A stretch of DNA of 6,528 nt from a virus (taxonomy: Duplodnaviria > Heunggongvirae > Uroviricota > Caudoviricetes), in the IMG/VR virus record IMGVR_UViG_2563366825_000008. One strand, given 5' to 3'. Both the position numbers and the translations under genes were made by a program. How positions within the stretch are numbered: the first letter of the stretch is position 1; every line of letters starts with the position of its first letter. The notes beneath the pieces are model-generated. The model ran no database searches and was not told the origin of the DNA. It saw only the letters and a program-made list of their open reading frames with translations. Shown piece after piece: positions 1-6,528 of this stretch.

Positions 1-642
1 CCCTGCGTGAATATCTCCGGTGAGCCAGAGGATTATTTCCGGATGTCGCCGGAGGACTGGCTGCAGGCAGAAATGCAGGGTGAGATTGTGGCGCTGGTCC
101 ACAGCCACCCCGGTGGTCTGCCCTGGCTGAGTGAGGCTGACCGGCGGCTGCAGGTGCAGAGTGATTTGCCGTGGTTGCTGGTCTGCCGGGGGGCGATTCA
201 TAAGTTCCGCTGTGTGCCGCATCTCACCGGGCGGCGCTTTGAGCACGGGGTGACGGACTGTTACACGCTGTTCCGGGATGCTTATCATCTGGCGGGGATT
301 GAGATGCCGGATTTTCATCGCGAGGATGACTGGTGGCGTCACGGTCAGAATCTCTATCTGGATAATCTGGAGGCCACAGGGCTGTATCAGGTGCCGTTGT
401 CAGCGGCGCAGCCGGGCGATGTGCTGCTGTGCTGTTTTGGTTCATCGGTGCCGAATCATGCCGCCATTTACTGCGGCGACGGCGAGCTGTTGCACCATAT
501 TCCTGAACAACTGAGCAAACGAGAGAGGTATACAGACAAATGGCAGCGACGCACACACTCCCTCTGGCGTCACCGGGCATGGCGCGCATCTGCCTTTACG
601 GGGATTTGCAACGATTTGGCCGCCGCATCGACCTTCGTGTGA
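1..642 (+). CDS. K: Tail tip assembly protein K, 5'-truncated by the window edge; JAB/MPN (JAMM) metallopeptidase-like domain followed by NlpC/P60 cysteine peptidase-like domain
   Basis: Frame 1 is open from nt 1 (translation begins PCVNISGEPEDYF...) to TGA at 640-642. The Met at nt 7 in the ORF track is internal, not the true start. JAMM-type motif HSHPGGLPWLSEAD (H-x-H-x7-S-x2-D) is encoded at nt 100-141. A candidate NlpC/P60 catalytic Cys lies in GVTDCYTLF (codon 259-261), with downstream His in PNHAAIY (codon 457-459) and LLHHIPE. The product is recognised as lambda gpK-like from memory. Confidence 0.88.
   Translation, partial: PCVNISGEPEDYFRMSPEDWLQAEMQGEIVALVHSHPGGLPWLSEADRRLQVQSDLPWLLVCRGAIHKFRCVPHLTGRRFEHGVTDCYTLFRDAYHLAGIEMPDFHREDDWWRHGQNLYLDNLEATGLYQVPLSAAQPGDVLLCCFGSSVPNHAAIYCGDGELLHHIPEQLSKRERYTDKWQRRTHSLWRHRAWRASAFTGICNDLAAASTFV
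521..528 (+). promoter_or_regulatory. Candidate Shine-Dalgarno (GAGAGAGG) for gene I, lying inside the 3' end of K
   Basis: Purine-rich GAGAGAGG sits 11 nt upstream of the I start codon at 540. The spacing is on the long side. Confidence 0.35.
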
Positions 643-1211
643 AAACGGGGGCTGAAGCCATCCGCGCACTGGCCACACAGCTCCCGATGTTTCGTCAGAA
701 ACTGAGCGACGGCTGGTATCAGGTACGGATTGCCGGGCGGGACGTCAGCACGTCCGGGTTAACGGCGCAGTTACATGAGACTCTGCCTGATGGCGCTGTG
801 ATTCATATTGTTCCCAGAGTCGCCGGGGCCAAGTCAGGTGGCGTATTCCAGATTGTCCTGGGGGCTGCCGCCATTGCCGGATCATTCTTTACCGCCGGAG
901 CCACCCTTGCAGCATGGGGGGCAGCCATTGGGGCCGGTGGTATGACCGGCATCCTGTTTTCTCTCGGTGCCAGTATGGTGCTCGGTGGTGTGGCGCAGAT
1001 GCTGGCACCTAAAGCCAGAACTCCCCGTACACAGACAACGGATAACGGCAAACAGAACACCTATTTCTCCTCCCTGGATAACATGGTTGCCCAGGGTAAT
1101 GTTCTGCCGGTTCTGTACGGTGAAATGCGCGTGGGGTCACGCGTGGTTTCTCAGGAGATCAGCACGGCAGACGAAGGGGATGGTGGTCAGGTTGTGGTGA
1201 TTGGTCGCTGA
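540..1211 (+). CDS. I: Tail tip assembly protein I (223 aa); ubiquitin-like/beta-grasp N-terminal part ending in Gly-Gly, followed by a Gly/Ala-rich hydrophobic segment
   Basis: ATG at 540 to TGA at 1209-1211. The translation MAATHTLPLASPGMARICLYGDLQRFGRRIDLRVKTGAEAIRALATQLP... is recognised as lambda gpI-like. It overlaps the K 3' end by 103 nt in a different frame. Residues about 100-157 (nt 837-1010) form a GxxxG/AxxxA-rich hydrophobic stretch (GGVFQIVLGAAAIAGSFFTAGATLAAWGAAIGAGGMTGILFSLGASMVLGGVAQMLAP). Confidence 0.92.
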   Translation: MAATHTLPLASPGMARICLYGDLQRFGRRIDLRVKTGAEAIRALATQLPMFRQKLSDGWYQVRIAGRDVSTSGLTAQLHETLPDGAVIHIVPRVAGAKSGGVFQIVLGAAAIAGSFFTAGATLAAWGAAIGAGGMTGILFSLGASMVLGGVAQMLAPKARTPRTQTTDNGKQNTYFSSLDNMVAQGNVLPVLYGEMRVGSRVVSQEISTADEGDGGQVVVIGR

Positions 1212-1271: not shown

Positions 1272-4200
1272 ATGGGTAAAGGCAGCAGTAAGGGGCATAC
1301 CCCGCGCGAAGCGAAGGACAACCTGAAGTCCACGCAGCTGCTGAGTGTGATCGATGCCATCAGCGAAGGGCCGGTTGAAGGTCCGGTGGATGGATTAAAA
1401 AGCGTACTGCTGAACAGTACGCCGGTGCTGGACAGTGAGGGGAATACCAATATATCCGGCGTCACGGTGGTGTTCCGGGCCGGTGAGCAGGAGCAGACAC
1501 CGCCGGAGGGATTTGAATCCTCCGGCTCCGAGACGGTGCTCGGTACAGAAGTGAAATATGACACGCCGATCACCCGGACCATCACGTCGGCAAACATTGA
1601 CCGTCTGCGTTTTACTTTCGGCGTGCAGGCACTGGTGGAAACCACCTCAAAGGGGGACAGGAATCCATCGGAAGTCCGCCTGCTGGTTCAGATACAACGT
1701 AACGGTGGCTGGGTGACGGAAAAAGACATCACCATTAAGGGTAAAACCACTTCACAGTATCTGGCCTCGGTGGTGGTGGATAACCTGCCGCCGCGCCCGT
1801 TCAGTATCCGGATGCGCAGGATGACGCCGGACAGCACCACAGACCAGCTGCAGAACAAAACGCTCTGGTCGTCATACACCGAAATTATCGATGTGAAACA
1901 GTGCTACCCGAACACGGCACTGGTCGGCGTGCAGGTGGACTCGGAGCAGTTCGGCAGCCAGCAGGTGAGCCGTAATTATCATCTGCGCGGGCGTATTCTG
2001 CAGGTGCCGTCGAATTATACCCCGCAGACGCGGCAATACAGCGGTATCTGGGACGGAACGTTTAAACCGGCATACAGCAACAACATGGCCTGGTGTCTGT
2101 GGGATATGCTGACCCATCCGCGCTACGGCATGGGGAAACGTCTTGGTGCGGCGGATGTGGATAAATGGGCGTTGTATGTTATCGGCCAGTACTGCGACCA
2201 GTCAGTGCCGGACGGCTTTGGCGGCACGGAGCCGCGCATCACCTGTAATGCGTACCTGACCACACAGCGCAAGGCGTGGGATGTGCTCAGTGATTTCTGC
2301 TCGGCGATGCGCTGTATGCCGGTATGGAACGGGCAGACGCTGACGTTCGTGCAGGACCGACCATCAGATAAGGTGTGGACCTATAACCGCAGTAATGTGG
2401 TGATGCCGGATGATGGCGCGCCGTTCCGCTACAGCTTCAGCGCCCTGAAGGACCGCCATAATGCCGTTGAGGTGAACTGGATTGACCCGAACAACGGCTG
2501 GGAGACGGCGACAGAGCTTGTTGAAGATACGCAGGCCATTGCCCGTTACGGTCGTAATGTCACGAAGATGGATGCCTTTGGCTGTACCAGCCGGGGGCAG
2601 GCACACCGCGCCGGGCTGTGGCTGATTAAAACTGAACTGCTGGAGACGCAGACCGTGGATTTCAGCGTGGGTGCTGAAGGGCTTCGCCATGTACCGGGCG
2701 ATGTCATTGAAATCTGCGATGATGACTATGCCGGTATCAGCACCGGTGGTCGCGTGCTGGCGGTGAACAGCCAGACCCGGACGCTGACGCTCGACCGTGA
2801 AATCACGCTGCCATCCTCCGGTACCACGCTGATAAGCCTGGTTGACGGAAGTGGTAATCCGGTCAGCGTGGAGGTTCAGTCCGTCACCGACGGACTTAAG
2901 GTGAAAGTGAACCGGGTTCCTGATGGCGTTGCAGAATACAGTGTGTGGGGGCTGAAGCTGCCGACGTTGCGTCAGCGCCTGTTCCGCTGTGTGAGTATCC
3001 GTGAGAACGATGACGGCACGTATGCCATCACTGCCGTGCAGCATGTACTGGAAAAAGAAGCCATCGTGGATAACGGGGCGCACTTTGACGGCGACCAGAG
3101 CAGCACGGTGAATGGTGTCACGCCGCCAGCGGTGCAGCACCTGACCGCCGAAGTCACCGCAGACAGCGGGGAATATCAGGTGCTGGCGCGCTGGGACACG
3201 CCGAAGGTGGTGAAGGGCGTGAGCTTCCTGCTCCGTCTGACCGTAACAGCGGATGACGGCAGTGAGCGGCTGGTCAGCACGGCCCGGACGACGGAAACCA
3301 CATACCGCTTCACGCAACTGGCGCTGGGGAACTACAGGCTGACAGTCCGGGCGGTAAATGCGTGGGGGCAGCAGGGCGATCCGGCGTCGGTATCGTTCCG
3401 GATTGCCGCACCGGCAGCACCGTCGAGGATTGAGCTGACGCCGGGCTATTTTCAGATAACCGCCACGCCGCATCTTGCCGTTTATGACCCGACGGTACAG
3501 TTTGAGTTCTGGTTCTCGGAAAAACGGATTGCTGATATCAGGCAGGTTGAAACCACAGCCCGCTATCTTGGCACGGCGCTGTACTGGATAGCCGCCAGTA
3601 TCAATATCAAACCGGGCCATGATTATTATTTTTACGTTCGCAGTGTGAACACCGTTGGCAAATCGGCATTCGTGGAGGCTGTTGGTCAGCCGAGTGATGA
3701 TGCATCCGGCTATCTGGATTTTTTCAAAGGCGAGATAGGGAAAACCCATCTGGCTCAGGAGCTGTGGACGCAGATTGATAACGGTCAGCTTGCGCCTGAC
3801 CTGGCTGAAATCAGGACGTCCATTACGGATGTCAGCAATGAAATCACGCAGACCGTCAATAAGAAACTGGAAGACCAGAGTGCGGCAATTCAGCAGATAC
3901 AGAAGGTTCAGGTTGATACAAATAATAACCTGAACAGCATGTGGGCTGTGAAGCTGCAGCAGATGCAGGACGGACGCCTTTATATCGCGGGTATTGGTGC
4001 CGGTATTGAGAACACCCCTGACGGCATGCAGAGTCAGGTGCTGCTGGCGGCGGACAGGATTGCGATGGTTAATCCTGCGAATGGCAACACAAAACCGATG
4101 TTTGTTGGTCAGGGCGATCAGATATTCATGAACGACGTGTTCCTGAAACGCCTGACGGCCCCCACCATTACCAGCGGTGGAAATCCACCGGCATTTTCCC

Positions 4201-4751
4201 TGACACCGGACGGAAAGCTGACTGCTAAAAATGCGGATATCAGTGGCAGTGTGAATGCGAACTCCGGGACGCTCAACAACGTCACGATTAATGAGAACTG
4301 TCAGATTAAGGGGAAACTGTCAGCCAATCAGATTGAAGGCGATATTGTCAAAACAGTGGGTAAGGCTTTCCCGCGGGACTCCCGGGCACCGGAGCGGTGG
4401 CCATCAGGGACCATTACCGTCAGGATTTATGACGATCAGCCTTTTGACAGGCAAATTGTTATTCCAGCGGTGGCATTCTGCGGCGCTAAACATGAGCGGG
4501 AGAATAACGATATTTATTCGTCATGCCGCCTGATAGTGAAGAAAAATGGTGCTGAAATTTATAACCGTACCGCGCTGGATAATACGCTGATTTACAGTGG
4601 TGTTATTGATATGCCAGCTGGTCACGGCCACATGACGCTGGAGTTTTCGGTGTCAGCATGGCTGGTAAATGACTGGTATCCCACAGCAAGTATCAGCGAT
4701 TTGCTGGTTGTGGTGATGAAGAAAGCCACCGCAGGCATCAGTATCAGCTGA
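1272..4751 (+). CDS. J: Central tail fibre / host specificity protein J (1159 aa), tail tip protein with FN3-like internal modules and a variant C-terminal receptor-binding region
   Basis: ATG at 1272 to TGA at 4749-4751, with a good SD. The N-terminus [42 protein letters not shown]... and most of the first ~800 residues are recognised as lambda gpJ-like. The conserved stretch [60 protein letters not shown] is present. The C-terminal ~150 aa differ from my recollection of lambda J. Confidence 0.95.
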
Positions 4752-4818: not shown

Positions 4819-5418
4819 ATGCGTAAAGTTTGTGCAGCCATTTTGTCCGCAGCCATCTGTCTGGCCGTATCCGGTGCGCCTGCATGGGCGTCTGAGCAGC
4901 AGGCCACACTGAGCGCAGGGTATCTTCATGCCCGTACGAACGCTCCCGGCAGCGATGATCTGAACGGGATTAACGTGAAATACCGTTATGAGTTTACGGA
5001 CACGCTGGGGCTGATTACGTCATTCAGTTATGCCAACGCTGAAGATGAGCAAAAAACGCATTACAGCGATACCCGCTGGCATGAAGATTCCGTGCGTAAC
5101 CGCTGGTTCAGCGTGATGGCGGGGCCGTCTGTGCGCGTGAATGAATGGTTCAGCGCGTATGCGATGGCGGGTATGGCTTACAGCCGTGTTTCGACTTTCT
5201 CCGGAGATTATATCCGCGTAACTGACAACAAGGGGAAAACGCACGATGTGCTGACCGGAAGTGATGACGGTCGCCACAGCAACACGTCTCTGGCGTGGGG
5301 GGCTGGCGTGCAGTTTAACCCGACCGAATCCGTGGCCATTGATATTGCTTATGAAGGCTCCGGCAGTGGTGACTGGCGCACTGACGGTTTCATCGTGGGT
5401 GTCGGTTATAAATTCTGA
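4819..5418 (+). CDS. lom: Lom-like outer membrane protein (Ail/Lom/PagC/OmpX family 8-stranded beta-barrel), 199 aa with N-terminal signal peptide
   Basis: ATG at 4819 to TGA at 5416-5418. The N-terminus [24 protein letters not shown]|SEQQ looks like a Sec signal peptide with an AxA cleavage site. The C-terminus ...[28 protein letters not shown] ends in an aromatic residue (OMP beta-signal) and matches my recollection of the lambda Lom C-terminus. The position immediately after J is as in lambda. Confidence 0.9.
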
Positions 5419-5482: not shown

Positions 5483-6528
5483 ATGGCAGTAAAGATTTCA
5501 GGTGTACTGAAAGACGGCACAGGAAAACCGGTGCAGAACTGCACAATCCAGCTGAAAGCTAAACGTAACAGTACCACGGTGGTGGTGAACACGCTGGCAT
5601 CTGAAAATCCGGATGAAGCCGGGCGTTACAGCATGGACGTTGAGTACGGTCAGTACAGCGTTATTCTGTTGGTGGAAGGGTTCCCGCCGTCACATGCCGG
5701 GACCATCACCGTGTATGAAGATTCCCGACCCGGTACGCTGAATGATTTTCTCGGTGCCATGACGGAGGATGATGCCCGTCCGGAGGCTCTGCGCCGTTTT
5801 GAGCTGATGGTGGAAGAGGTGGCGCGTAACGCGTCCGCAGTGGCACAGAACACGGCAGCCGCAAAGAAGTCAGCCAGCGATGCCGGCACATCTGCCCGTG
5901 AGGCGGCAACCCATGCGACTGATGCTGCAGACTCAGCACGCGCAGCCAGCTCGTCAGCCGGACAGGCCGCGTCGTCGGCTCAGTCAGCGTCTTCCAGCGC
6001 AGGAACGGCATCAGCAAAGGCCACTGAAGCATTAAAAAGTGCTGCCGCTGCAGAGTCCTCAAAAAGCGCGGCAGCTACCAGTGCCAGTGCCGCGAAAACG
6101 TCTGAAACGAATGCTGCAGCGTCACAACAATCAGCAGCCACTTCTGCATCCACCGCGACTACGAAAGCGTCAGAAGCTGCCATCTCAGCCCGGGATGCGT
6201 CGGCTTCAAAAGAGGCGGCAAAATCATCAGAAACGAACGCATCCTCGAGCGCCAGTAGCGCAGCTTCCTCGGCAACGGCGGCAGCAAATTCCGCGAAGGC
6301 GGCAAAAACGTCCGAGACGAACGCCAGGTCTTCTGAGACGGCAGCGGGACAGAGCGCCTCAGCTGCGGCAGGCTCAAAAACAGCGGCTGCGTCGTCTGCC
6401 AGTGCCGCGTCAACAAGTGCCGGGCAGGCCTCAGCCAGTGCCACCGCCGCCGGAAAATCGGCAGAAAGCGCCGCATCATCCGCTTCAACAGCCACAACGA
6501 AGGCTGGCGAAGCCACTGAACAGGCCAG
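5483..6528 (+). CDS. stf: Side tail fibre protein Stf, N-terminal part; 3'-truncated by the window edge and therefore absent from the ORF track
   Basis: ATG at 5483, preceded by a G-rich SD (GGGGGGA, 5474-5480). Frame 2 is open through the end of the window (about 348 codons). The translation MAVKISGVLKDGTGKPVQNCTIQLKAKRNSTTVVVNTLASENPDEAGRYSMDVEYGQYSVILLVEGFPPSHAGTITVYEDSRPGTLNDFLGAMTEDDARPEALRRFELMVEEVARNAS... is recognised as lambda Stf (orf-401)-like, followed by an Ala/Ser/Thr-rich low-complexity shaft region. Confidence 0.85.
   Translation, partial: MAVKISGVLKDGTGKPVQNCTIQLKAKRNSTTVVVNTLASENPDEAGRYSMDVEYGQYSVILLVEGFPPSHAGTITVYEDSRPGTLNDFLGAMTEDDARPEALRRFELMVEEVARNASAVAQNTAAAKKSASDAGTSAREAATHATDAADSARAASSSAGQAASSAQSASSSAGTASAKATEALKSAAAAESSKSAAATSASAAKTSETNAAASQQSAATSASTATTKASEAAISARDASASKEAAKSSETNASSSASSAASSATAAANSAKAAKTSETNARSSETAAGQSASAAAGSKTAAASSASAASTSAGQASASATAAGKSAESAASSASTATTKAGEATEQA
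6089..6329 (+). repeat. Degenerate in-frame repeats inside stf encoding A-A-K-[ST]-S-E-T-N-A motifs within an Ala/Ser-rich tract
   Basis: Three related ~30-nt units: GCCGCGAAAACGTCTGAAACGAATGCT (6089-), GCGGCAAAATCATCAGAAACGAACGCA (6215-) and GCGGCAAAAACGTCCGAGACGAACGCC (6299-), each encoding AAK(T/S)SETNA. Confidence 0.55.

Follow-up and report, generated by a model that had tools for sequence, protein, structure and literature searches.

The window that we analysed, by which we mean the whole stretch of DNA at its full length of 6,528 nt, contains the genes K, I, J, lom and stf. By its sequence, the K/I region corresponds to genes K and I of a lambdoid (lambda-like) phage, which serve in tail-tip assembly, and its DNA shares 98% identity with phage 21 and about 97.5% with lambda. 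All coordinates below refer to the plus strand. Gene K (1–642; frame 1, stop codon at 640–642) is truncated at its 5′ end and encodes residues 35–247 of a 247 aa protein. It shares 99% identity with P0126, a complete protein of 247 aa, and its counterpart in the phage 21 record is annotated as a homologue of lambda K. Gene I (540–1211; frame 3) encodes a tail-tip assembly or tip plug protein of 223 aa, identified by its identity to lambda gpI (221 of 223 residues; PDB 8iyk, 8iyl, 8k35 and 8xcg) and by matches to Pfam Lambda_tail_I PF06805 (98.4 bits, E=3e-28) and phrog_32 (PHROG 32; E=3e-83). It lies between K and J in the K-I-J gene order of the siphophage tail module, the position that a Lambda tail assembly protein I requires.

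K and I overlap out of frame by 103 nt (540–642), an arrangement that is also annotated in phage 21. A Shine–Dalgarno sequence of gene I (GAGG, 525–529), read directly from the DNA, is situated within the K coding region, at the position where the phage 21 annotation marks a ribosome binding site. A by-eye reading of the K frame across the overlap revealed no XXXYYYZ slippery heptamer for programmed −1 frameshifting. Natural K-I fusion ORFs are present in the database (P0009, P0013, P0144 and P0180), each with part of one domain missing. The gene pair in the window is essentially that of lambda gpK/gpI (TAPK/TAPI), with which it shares the 103 nt overlap, the order L-K-I-J-lom-stf and the domain architecture. 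Relative to lambda, I carries the substitutions A50M and I164T and K carries a few substitutions, none of which falls at a catalytic or conserved residue. For a wider comparison, the loci of nine distant phages and of phage 21 were collected by tblastn against phage records, and a K gene with JAB and NlpC domains was positioned directly upstream of I in eight of the nine distant phages sampled.

K carries a JAMM/MPN+ metal-binding motif, H68-S69-H70 ... S78 .. D81 in full-length numbering (100–141), with the sequence HSHPGGLPWLSEAD starting at nt 100. The initial annotation, which was made from the sequence alone, described this motif as intact. That description holds for the HxH...S..D signature and for no more than this, because the first 34 residues of K fall upstream of the window edge; the JAMM glutamate (E19 of P0126, conserved to at least 90%) is encoded there. 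On alignment the metal-binding residues were kept: H68, S69, H70, S78 and D81 show no variation among nine distant K proteins (phages of Escherichia, Providencia, Burkholderia, Shigella, Klebsiella, Stenotrophomonas, Pseudomonas, Salmonella and Acinetobacter) or in alignments of 24 and 36 sequences. The Prok-JAB family PF14464 scored 25.1 bits against the window fragment of K and 53.2 bits (E=3e-14) against full-length P0126, with a cut-off of 25. The top NCBIfam match of K was 'desampylase', under the cut-off, and a PDB sequence search with K returned no solved relative. An AF2 model of K (pLDDT 85.6), for which the alignment was built from closer homologues only, had its best match in Pyrococcus furiosus JAMM1 (5ld9 and 5lda), including the complex with SAMP2. 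Foldseek matched the model to Rpn11, AMSH, CSN5 and PfJAMM1 with a probability of 1.00, indicating an MPN fold.

The JAMM domain of K is joined to an NlpC/P60 (C40) papain-like peptidase domain (229–570), recognized from Pfam, conservation and Foldseek. NLPC_P60 PF00877 matched residues 77–190 of the K fragment (E=4e-13), and this part of the model matched LytE, Acd33800 and MepS in Foldseek. The catalytic positions are Cys121 (259–261), His187 (457–459) and His199/His200 (493–498). D120-C121, H187 and H199 do not vary between distant phages, C121, H187 and H199 being present in all nine K proteins, so that the cysteine-peptidase-like Cys/His set first noticed in the translation is borne out. 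The two folds that had been anticipated for K, JAB and NlpC/P60, were both recovered by AF2 and Foldseek.

Both domains are hydrolases, and the usual function of the NlpC/P60 family is as a peptidoglycan endopeptidase. In lambda, gpK was not detected by mass spectrometry of virions (PMC10721106) and was not resolved by cryo-EM (PMC12617516). Since K is not detected in virions, it is unlikely to help in penetrating the cell wall at entry. K is not part of the virion, yet its Cys-His-His triad is invariant in very distant phages, and for this reason we considered whether the NlpC/P60 domain might, instead of acting on peptidoglycan, cut a second substrate during tail assembly. We judge this distinctly unlikely and put it forward as a small chance. 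One candidate substrate would be the tape measure protein gpH, which is cleaved to gpH* in a Gly-rich region by a protease that is stated to be unknown (PMC12617516).

Structure prediction of I located the beta-grasp fold that the initial annotation had sought. The N-terminal domain (residues 14–97; 579–830) was modelled by AF2 with a pLDDT of 94–97 over residues 11–90, as a confident beta-grasp spanning residues 13–92, and with strands at 13–19, 29–34, 60–64 and 87–92. Its best Foldseek matches in the PDB were SAMP1, MoaD, CysO, Urm1, ThiS and ubiquitin (TM 0.68–0.77 on the target). On the strength of the model, the domain is assigned to the beta-grasp, ubiquitin-like fold of the ThiS/MoaD/SAMP/Urm1 clade. 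It is followed by a predicted hydrophobic, Gly/Ala-rich helical hairpin, H1+H2 (residues 101–158; 840–1013), defined by hydropathy, composition and the AF2 helices at 100–129 and 136–155. This segment had been described as a GxxxG-rich hydrophobic tail of approximately 57 residues. The length is right, as residues 102–158 comprise 57 aa, and the segment is rich in small residues, with 14 Ala, 11 Gly and 16 small-xxx-small motifs, but there are only three strict GxxxG motifs in the whole of the I protein. Nor is the segment a tail, since a plug and beta-strand region of 65 residues (159–223; 1014–1208), delineated from the cryo-EM literature, follows it and is built into the virion. The two hairpin helices, which are resolved in the structure of closed tails, have been predicted to span a membrane (PMC11101478). 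The gpI trimer plugs the tip lumen, with beta-sheet augmentation involving gpJ, and holds the C-terminus of gpH (PMC10721106; PMC12617516; PMC11101478).

The junction between the ubiquitin-like domain and the hairpin contains two dipeptides of interest. The Gly-Gly that had been reported at residues 100–101 is indeed present (G100-G101; 837–842). I consists of 13.5% Gly, about 4.0 Gly-Gly dipeptides are expected and four are seen, and the probability that one begins inside a given span of 7 residues around the domain boundary is about 0.12; by itself, a Gly-Gly in I is within chance expectation. What exceeds chance is conservation, which points to G96-A97 (825–830). Among 50 diverse I homologues, P92 is present in all 50, G96 in 48 and A/S97 in 47 (Ala in 39 and Ser in 8, with Gly in a further 2), and the spacing P92-x3-G96-[AS]97 is fixed, placing G96 four residues past the invariant P92. 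In hhalign comparisons, MoaD, SAMP1 and ubiquitin each have their terminal Gly-Gly placed on G96-A97, so that G96 aligns with the penultimate Gly of each, in weak single-sequence matches (E 0.001–0.03, low probability). The ubiquitin-like domain of I lacks a literal C-terminal Gly-Gly, having Gly-Ala as the aligned pair, and G100-G101 comes three residues later, within a linker whose length varies, where helix H1 begins. We regard G96-A97 as the likely conserved equivalent of the ubiquitin/MoaD C-terminal Gly-Gly, and predict that the scissile bond follows this pair rather than G100-G101; the ubiquitin-like domain probably does not extend to the latter.

A different placement of the cut would have K cleave I exactly after G100-G101, with the ubiquitin-like domain ending in a canonical Gly-Gly and mature I starting at V102. 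JAMM deubiquitinases usually cut after Gly-Gly, a Gly-Gly is present at this position, and G101 is found in 42/50 homologues and is invariant in a sample of 10 distant phages. Because the AF2 helix H1 starts at residue 100, the Gly-Gly also occupies a structural hinge; to this extent it does lie at the domain junction claimed for it, whereas the domain itself probably ends at G96-A97. The conservation pattern argues against a cut at this site: G100 is found in only 25/50 homologues, a Gly-Gly in the register of the window in 21/50, and 19/50 have no Gly-Gly anywhere in the linker. The length of the linker from residue 97 to the helix differs by several residues among homologues, in contrast to the fixed spacing upstream of it, and the hhalign matches end MoaD, SAMP1 and ubiquitin at A97. 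In addition, residue 101 of gpI is reported, in one sentence, to be resolved in mature closed tails (PMC11101478). We therefore consider cleavage exactly after G100-G101 to be rather unlikely, although the fairly good conservation of G101 means that a cut at or beside this residue is possible.

These analyses show what the domains are, that the catalytic residues are conserved, and where the conserved Gly lies. That cleavage occurs, and that K is responsible for it, is taken from the literature. Iyer, Burroughs and Aravind proposed in 2006 that the JAB domain of TAPK probably frees the ubiquitin-like domain of TAPI by a cut at the C-terminal-most glycine (PMC1779556), in agreement with what the initial annotation attributed to these authors. 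The K/I finding is real but not new, the genes, folds and processing model having all been published at that time. In cryo-EM of virions, gpI is resolved only from residue 134/135 (PMC10721106; PMC12617516), and in closed-state tails from residue 101, according to the sentence cited above; the N-terminal domain is absent from all virion and tail density (PMC10721106; PMC12617516; PMC11101478). Mass spectrometry of virions yielded one gpI peptide (9.87% coverage), corresponding to the 22 aa C-terminal tryptic peptide 202–223, while residues 1–93 hold several tryptic peptides of detectable size. [quoted passage not shown] The best explanation, which we hold to be very probable, is that I is a precursor whose ubiquitin-like domain is removed by K during tail-tip assembly. 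We infer that the cut is made by the JAMM domain and not by the NlpC/P60 domain.

Related systems support comparison at several levels. The best structural matches came from the archaeal SAMP/JAMM pairs (Haloferax volcanii SAMP1 and HvJAMM1; P. furiosus JAMM1 and SAMP2), the N-terminal domain of I matching SAMP1 and the JAB domain of K matching PfJAMM1, both alone and in complex with SAMP2. The likeness extends to the reaction, in which a small JAMM protease cuts a MoaD-like ubiquitin-like protein (Ubl) from what follows its C-terminus, and to the SAMP end 'FPPVSGG', which hhalign aligned with 'IVPRVAGA' of I. Unlike the archaeal systems, the phage pair lacks an E1 and any sign of conjugation, its Ubl is a linear fusion to a structural protein with a terminal Gly-Ala rather than Gly-Gly, and its JAMM domain is fused to NlpC/P60.

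The F-pyocin proteins PA0639 and PA0640 of Pseudomonas aeruginosa are K and I homologues in a phage-tail-derived bacteriocin, a tailocin rather than a phage, and are distant in sequence. I matched PDB 25vf (E=1e-17), which we take to be PA0640 (200 aa, with a matching name). The F-pyocin particle shows only residues 127–200 of PA0640, the N-terminal domain being removed at a 'proteolytic checkpoint'; the N-terminal region is missing from mature particles and present in stalled precursors, and deletion of PA0639 gives tubes without tips, with no protease assigned by the authors (bioRxiv 10.64898/2026.02.24.707460). The statement in the initial annotation that processing of I was untested is overtaken both by this loss of the PA0640 N-terminus and by the gpK cleavage reported in summary at the conference. 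The plug domain of the phage T5 hub protein pb3 resembles the C-terminal tripod of gpI in position and role, closing the tube lumen, and insertion into the outer membrane has been suggested for it (PMC10721106). It differs in being an insertion within one large hub protein, without a ubiquitin-like pro-domain or a dedicated peptidase. The Tai defence paper was also considered, and had no relevance to K and I.

Three other roles for the pair were weighed against processing. The N-terminal domain of I could be retained in the virion but be flexible and invisible to cryo-EM, with K acting as a chaperone only or on another substrate. Missing density cannot separate disorder from cleavage, as the authors of two of the structures say, and Ge and Wang call the domain 'unseen' rather than absent (PMC11101478). 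The mass spectrometry speaks against retention, as virion coverage is confined to the C-terminal gpI peptide despite the detectable peptides in residues 1–93. So do the PA0640 N-terminal peptides, found in stalled precursors and not in mature particles (bioRxiv 10.64898/2026.02.24.707460), the invariance of the JAMM catalytic residues, and the gpK cleavage stated in the conference report. Retention is, in our judgement, extremely unlikely. The same virion data bear on a conjugation system, in which the Ubl of I would be covalently joined to another tail protein and K would reverse or mature the linkage, because neither Ubl density nor N-terminal gpI peptides are found in virions. Like conjugatable Ubls, the beta-grasp domain of I does have a conserved Gly at its C-terminus, and bacterial hosts can defend themselves by conjugating a Ubl onto the central tail fibre (bioRxiv 10.1101/2023.09.04.556158). 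However, no E1- or E2-like gene is present in the window, nor in the L-K-I-J modules of the nine other phages, which leaves conjugation without support, and both K domains are hydrolases. We give this possibility almost no credence, and of the initial suggestion that K 'processes or conjugates' I, only the processing half agrees with the literature.

Hör et al. proposed a counter-defence function, on the grounds that the Bil defence system attaches a Ubl to the central tail fibre (bioRxiv 10.1101/2023.09.04.556158); the deubiquitinase domain of K would then serve mainly to strip the host Bil-type Ubl from the fibre and not to act on I. Tail assembly requires K in hosts that lack Bil (PMC12617516; bioRxiv 10.64898/2026.02.24.707460), the adjacent gene encodes a Ubl substrate in eight of the nine distant phages sampled, and I is the substrate named in the conference report. 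As the main function of the domain, counter-defence is very unlikely, but stripping of the Bil Ubl could be a secondary activity of K.

Under the favoured reading of I as a K-processed precursor, I would be made in three parts: a MoaD/SAMP-like Ubl domain (14–97) with a conserved Gly-Ala end, then, after a short Lys/Gly linker, the hydrophobic two-helix hairpin (101–158), and finally the plug (159–223). K, with its JAMM zinc-peptidase domain fused to an NlpC/P60 cysteine-peptidase domain, would act as a non-structural enzyme. During tip assembly, I would dock onto the J/L hub, and the JAMM domain of K would then remove the Ubl, in the manner of a deubiquitinase or deSAMPylase acting on a linear Ubl fusion. 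Removal of the Ubl would be a checkpoint ahead of the tip engaging the tape measure and tube. From about residue 98–101 onward, I would stay in the virion as the trimer that plugs the tip lumen, and its hairpin may enter the outer membrane at a later stage.

The cryo-EM and mass spectrometry studies of 2023–2026 fit the processing model, and direct experiments have been publicly presented, as far as the conference summary describes them. To this body of work the window contributes another near-identical copy of the K/I pair and one refinement, the testable prediction that the ubiquitin-like domain ends at G96-A97 and not at G100-G101. The K/I pair is among the simplest natural partnerships of a ubiquitin fold and a JAMM peptidase outside eukaryotes, one in which the ubiquitin-fold domain would be a pro-domain whose removal sets the timing of a virus assembly step.

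The window represents the distal tail module of a lambdoid phage or prophage, opening with gene K (nt 1-642, lacking its first 34 codons). Then come the tail-tip assembly gene I (540-1211), J (1272-4751; 1159 aa, carrying the full Pfam domain set of the lambda tip attachment protein), lom (4819-5418) and the 5' part of stf, the gene for the side tail fibre, which starts at 5483 with MAVKISGVLKDGTGKPVQN and continues beyond the window end at 6528. The stf portion (5483-6528) reaches an Ala/Ser/Thr-rich repetitive region, and a minus-strand ORF of 178 aa (5980-6516) is an antisense shadow of stf. Across nt 1-1300 the DNA is 98.0% identical to phage 21 and ~97.5% identical to lambda isolates, and I has 2 substitutions in 223 residues relative to lambda gpI. 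In the phage 21 record, K, I, their 103-nt overlap and the ribosome-binding site of I are annotated likewise, as is a terminator downstream of I. The annotated terminator corresponds to a hairpin in the I-J gap within the late tail operon (1228-1252; AAACCGCCTCCGGGCGGTTTT, then ATCGTTT), which was not flagged by a simple terminator scan of the window.

The initial annotation described K as a JAB plus NlpC/P60 protein, and this was borne out: Pfam Prok-JAB and NLPC_P60 both exceeded their gathering thresholds, in agreement with the predicted folds. The full-length K model (pLDDT 85.6, pTM 0.77) matched Pyrococcus furiosus JAMM1, both free and in complex with the ubiquitin-like protein SAMP2, as well as Rpn11, AMSH and CSN5, while its second half matched the peptidoglycan endopeptidases LytE, Acd33800 and MepS (Foldseek). 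The JAMM motif HSHPGGLPWLSEAD starts at nt 100, but is not complete in the window as had been claimed; the catalytic glutamate lies upstream and is seen in the 99%-identical full-length database protein P0126.

Homologues of I were found by tblastn in 1710 phage records. Nine distant loci were compared, from phages of Providencia, Burkholderia, Shigella (T1-like), Klebsiella, Stenotrophomonas, Pseudomonas, a cyanobacterium, Salmonella (SSU5) and Acinetobacter. In eight of the nine, I is directly preceded by a gene with both domains, JAB+NlpC/P60, so the pairing of K with a ubiquitin-like gene is old and stable. In Cylindrospermopsis raciborskii virus RM-2018a, the K gene is absent beside I, and its upstream neighbour, an M-like gene, runs in the opposite direction. 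Residues H68, S69, H70, S78, D81, C121, H187 and H199 (247-residue K numbering) are invariant in the K proteins of the distant loci, so that both peptidase domains look catalytically competent.

Pfam Lambda_tail_I covers I residues 14-97. A structure model built from a 50-sequence alignment (homologues 32-60% identical) has beta-grasp topology over residues 13-92 at pLDDT 94-97, the fold anticipated for this domain, and its top PDB matches by Foldseek were SAMP1, MoaD, CysO, Urm1, ThiS and ubiquitin (TM 0.68-0.77 on target). An enzymatic role for residues 14-97 (window 579-830) is unsupported, given this confident beta-grasp with MoaD/SAMP matches.

Among 50 diverse I homologues, P92 is conserved in all, G96 in 48, and Ala or Ser at residue 97 in 47, with constant P-x3-G-[AS] spacing; G100 and G101 are found in 25/50 and 42/50. 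Beyond residue 97 comes a Lys/Arg/Gly-rich linker differing in length by several residues, then a hydrophobic helix. The Gly-Gly falls in the window's register in 21 homologues, and 19 have no Gly-Gly in the linker. The cyanobacterial virus I homologue (2507-3094 of its locus) retains P-x3-G-A, and Klebsiella phage vB_KpnS_GH-K1 (1980-2579) is a rare G96 exception, with Ala-Arg ('IPKARKNGG') replacing Gly-[Ala/Ser]. The I N-terminal profile was aligned by hhalign with Escherichia coli MoaD and Haloferax volcanii SAMP1, their sequences both confirmed in PDB, and with ubiquitin. All three alignments stop at A97, placing 'FFPPVTGG', 'LFPPVSGG' and 'LVLRLRGG' over 'IVPRVAGA'; despite weak scores (E 0.001-0.03), these ends agree with the structural match and the conservation. 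Conservation, fixed spacing and alignment ends together indicate that G96-A97 (nt 825-830) corresponds to the Gly-Gly of ubiquitin. The initial annotation had assigned the domain end to G100-G101; that dipeptide is indeed at nt 837-842, but lies three residues past A97, at the start of the AF2 helix. Its presence is unremarkable, because I is 13.5% glycine and its four GG dipeptides equal the number expected. Residues 102-158 are the 57-residue Ala/Gly-rich hydrophobic stretch described, though not a tail, as 65 further residues follow.

The K/I processing model was already published in 2006 by Iyer, Burroughs and Aravind, who recognized the TAPI ubiquitin-like domain, its conserved C-terminal glycine and glycine-rich linker, and described the JAB+NlpC/P60 architecture of TAPK (PMC1779556). 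The model, called untested in the initial annotation, has by now been addressed experimentally: a conference summary reports that gpI is cleaved only once bound to other tip proteins, enforcing stepwise assembly. Our literature search found no full paper on gpK-gpI cleavage beyond this summary. In F-pyocin, peptides from the N-terminus of the I homologue PA0640 occur in assembly-stalled mutants and are missing from mature particles, a loss termed a proteolytic checkpoint, and when the gpK homologue is deleted, the tubes that form lack tips (bioRxiv 10.64898/2026.02.24.707460). In lambda, gpK is absent from virions, and gpI is visible only from residue 134/135 in virion and tail structures (PMC10721106; PMC12617516) and from residue 101 in closed tails, as stated in the paper text (PMC11101478); its N-terminal domain is seen in none of them. 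The virion mass spectrometry table lists a single gpI peptide with 9.87% coverage, a value that the 22-residue C-terminal tryptic peptide 202-223 matches precisely.

We consider it very probable that I is processed by K, and slightly more likely than not that the scissile bond lies after G96-A97. Cleavage after G100-G101 is unlikely, since residue 101 is reported to be still present in mature tails (PMC11101478, paper text). An uncleaved but flexible N-terminal domain would also escape detection in structures, and is highly improbable in the face of the lambda and F-pyocin mass spectrometry and the conference report. The initial annotation allowed K either to process or to conjugate I; a conjugation system is barely conceivable, as neither this module nor the nine others contain a gene for an E1 or E2. 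Phage tail DUB domains have been proposed by Hör et al. to counter the host Bil defence (bioRxiv 10.1101/2023.09.04.556158). For K, such a function is very unlikely to be the explanation, as it leaves unaccounted for an essential gene whose substrate is encoded by its neighbour, though it may be a secondary activity.

K and I overlap out of frame by 103 nt (540-642), as in phage 21; the overlap is 97 nt in Providencia phage PSTCR8lys and 4-26 nt in the remaining distant phages. The C-terminus of lambda-type K is extended by ~25 residues (AF2 helix 230-246), and I carries 13 additional N-terminal residues ahead of strand 1; Met14 is the start of I in many database entries (P0012, 210 aa, 5268 members). 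Numerous K-I fusion ORFs exist in public genomes (database proteins P0009, P0013, P0029, P0144 and P0180; 1-2 sequences each). Their frames are joined at differing points in the overlap or close to it, and they resemble the outcome of frameshifts or deletions rather than a designed fusion; reading the K frame of the overlap by eye revealed no slippery heptamer.

In the processing model, I would be a precursor from which K removes the ubiquitin-fold pro-domain during tip assembly; which K domain would make the cut we infer from family behaviour. [quoted passage not shown] Mature I (~125 residues) would form a trimer that plugs the tip lumen and holds the tape measure C-terminus, with the hydrophobic hairpin possibly entering the outer membrane at a later step. 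The K and I of the window are a textbook lambda pair, whose biology is real and already known; the sole refinement we offer is that the ubiquitin-like domain of I ends at the conserved Gly96-Ala97.
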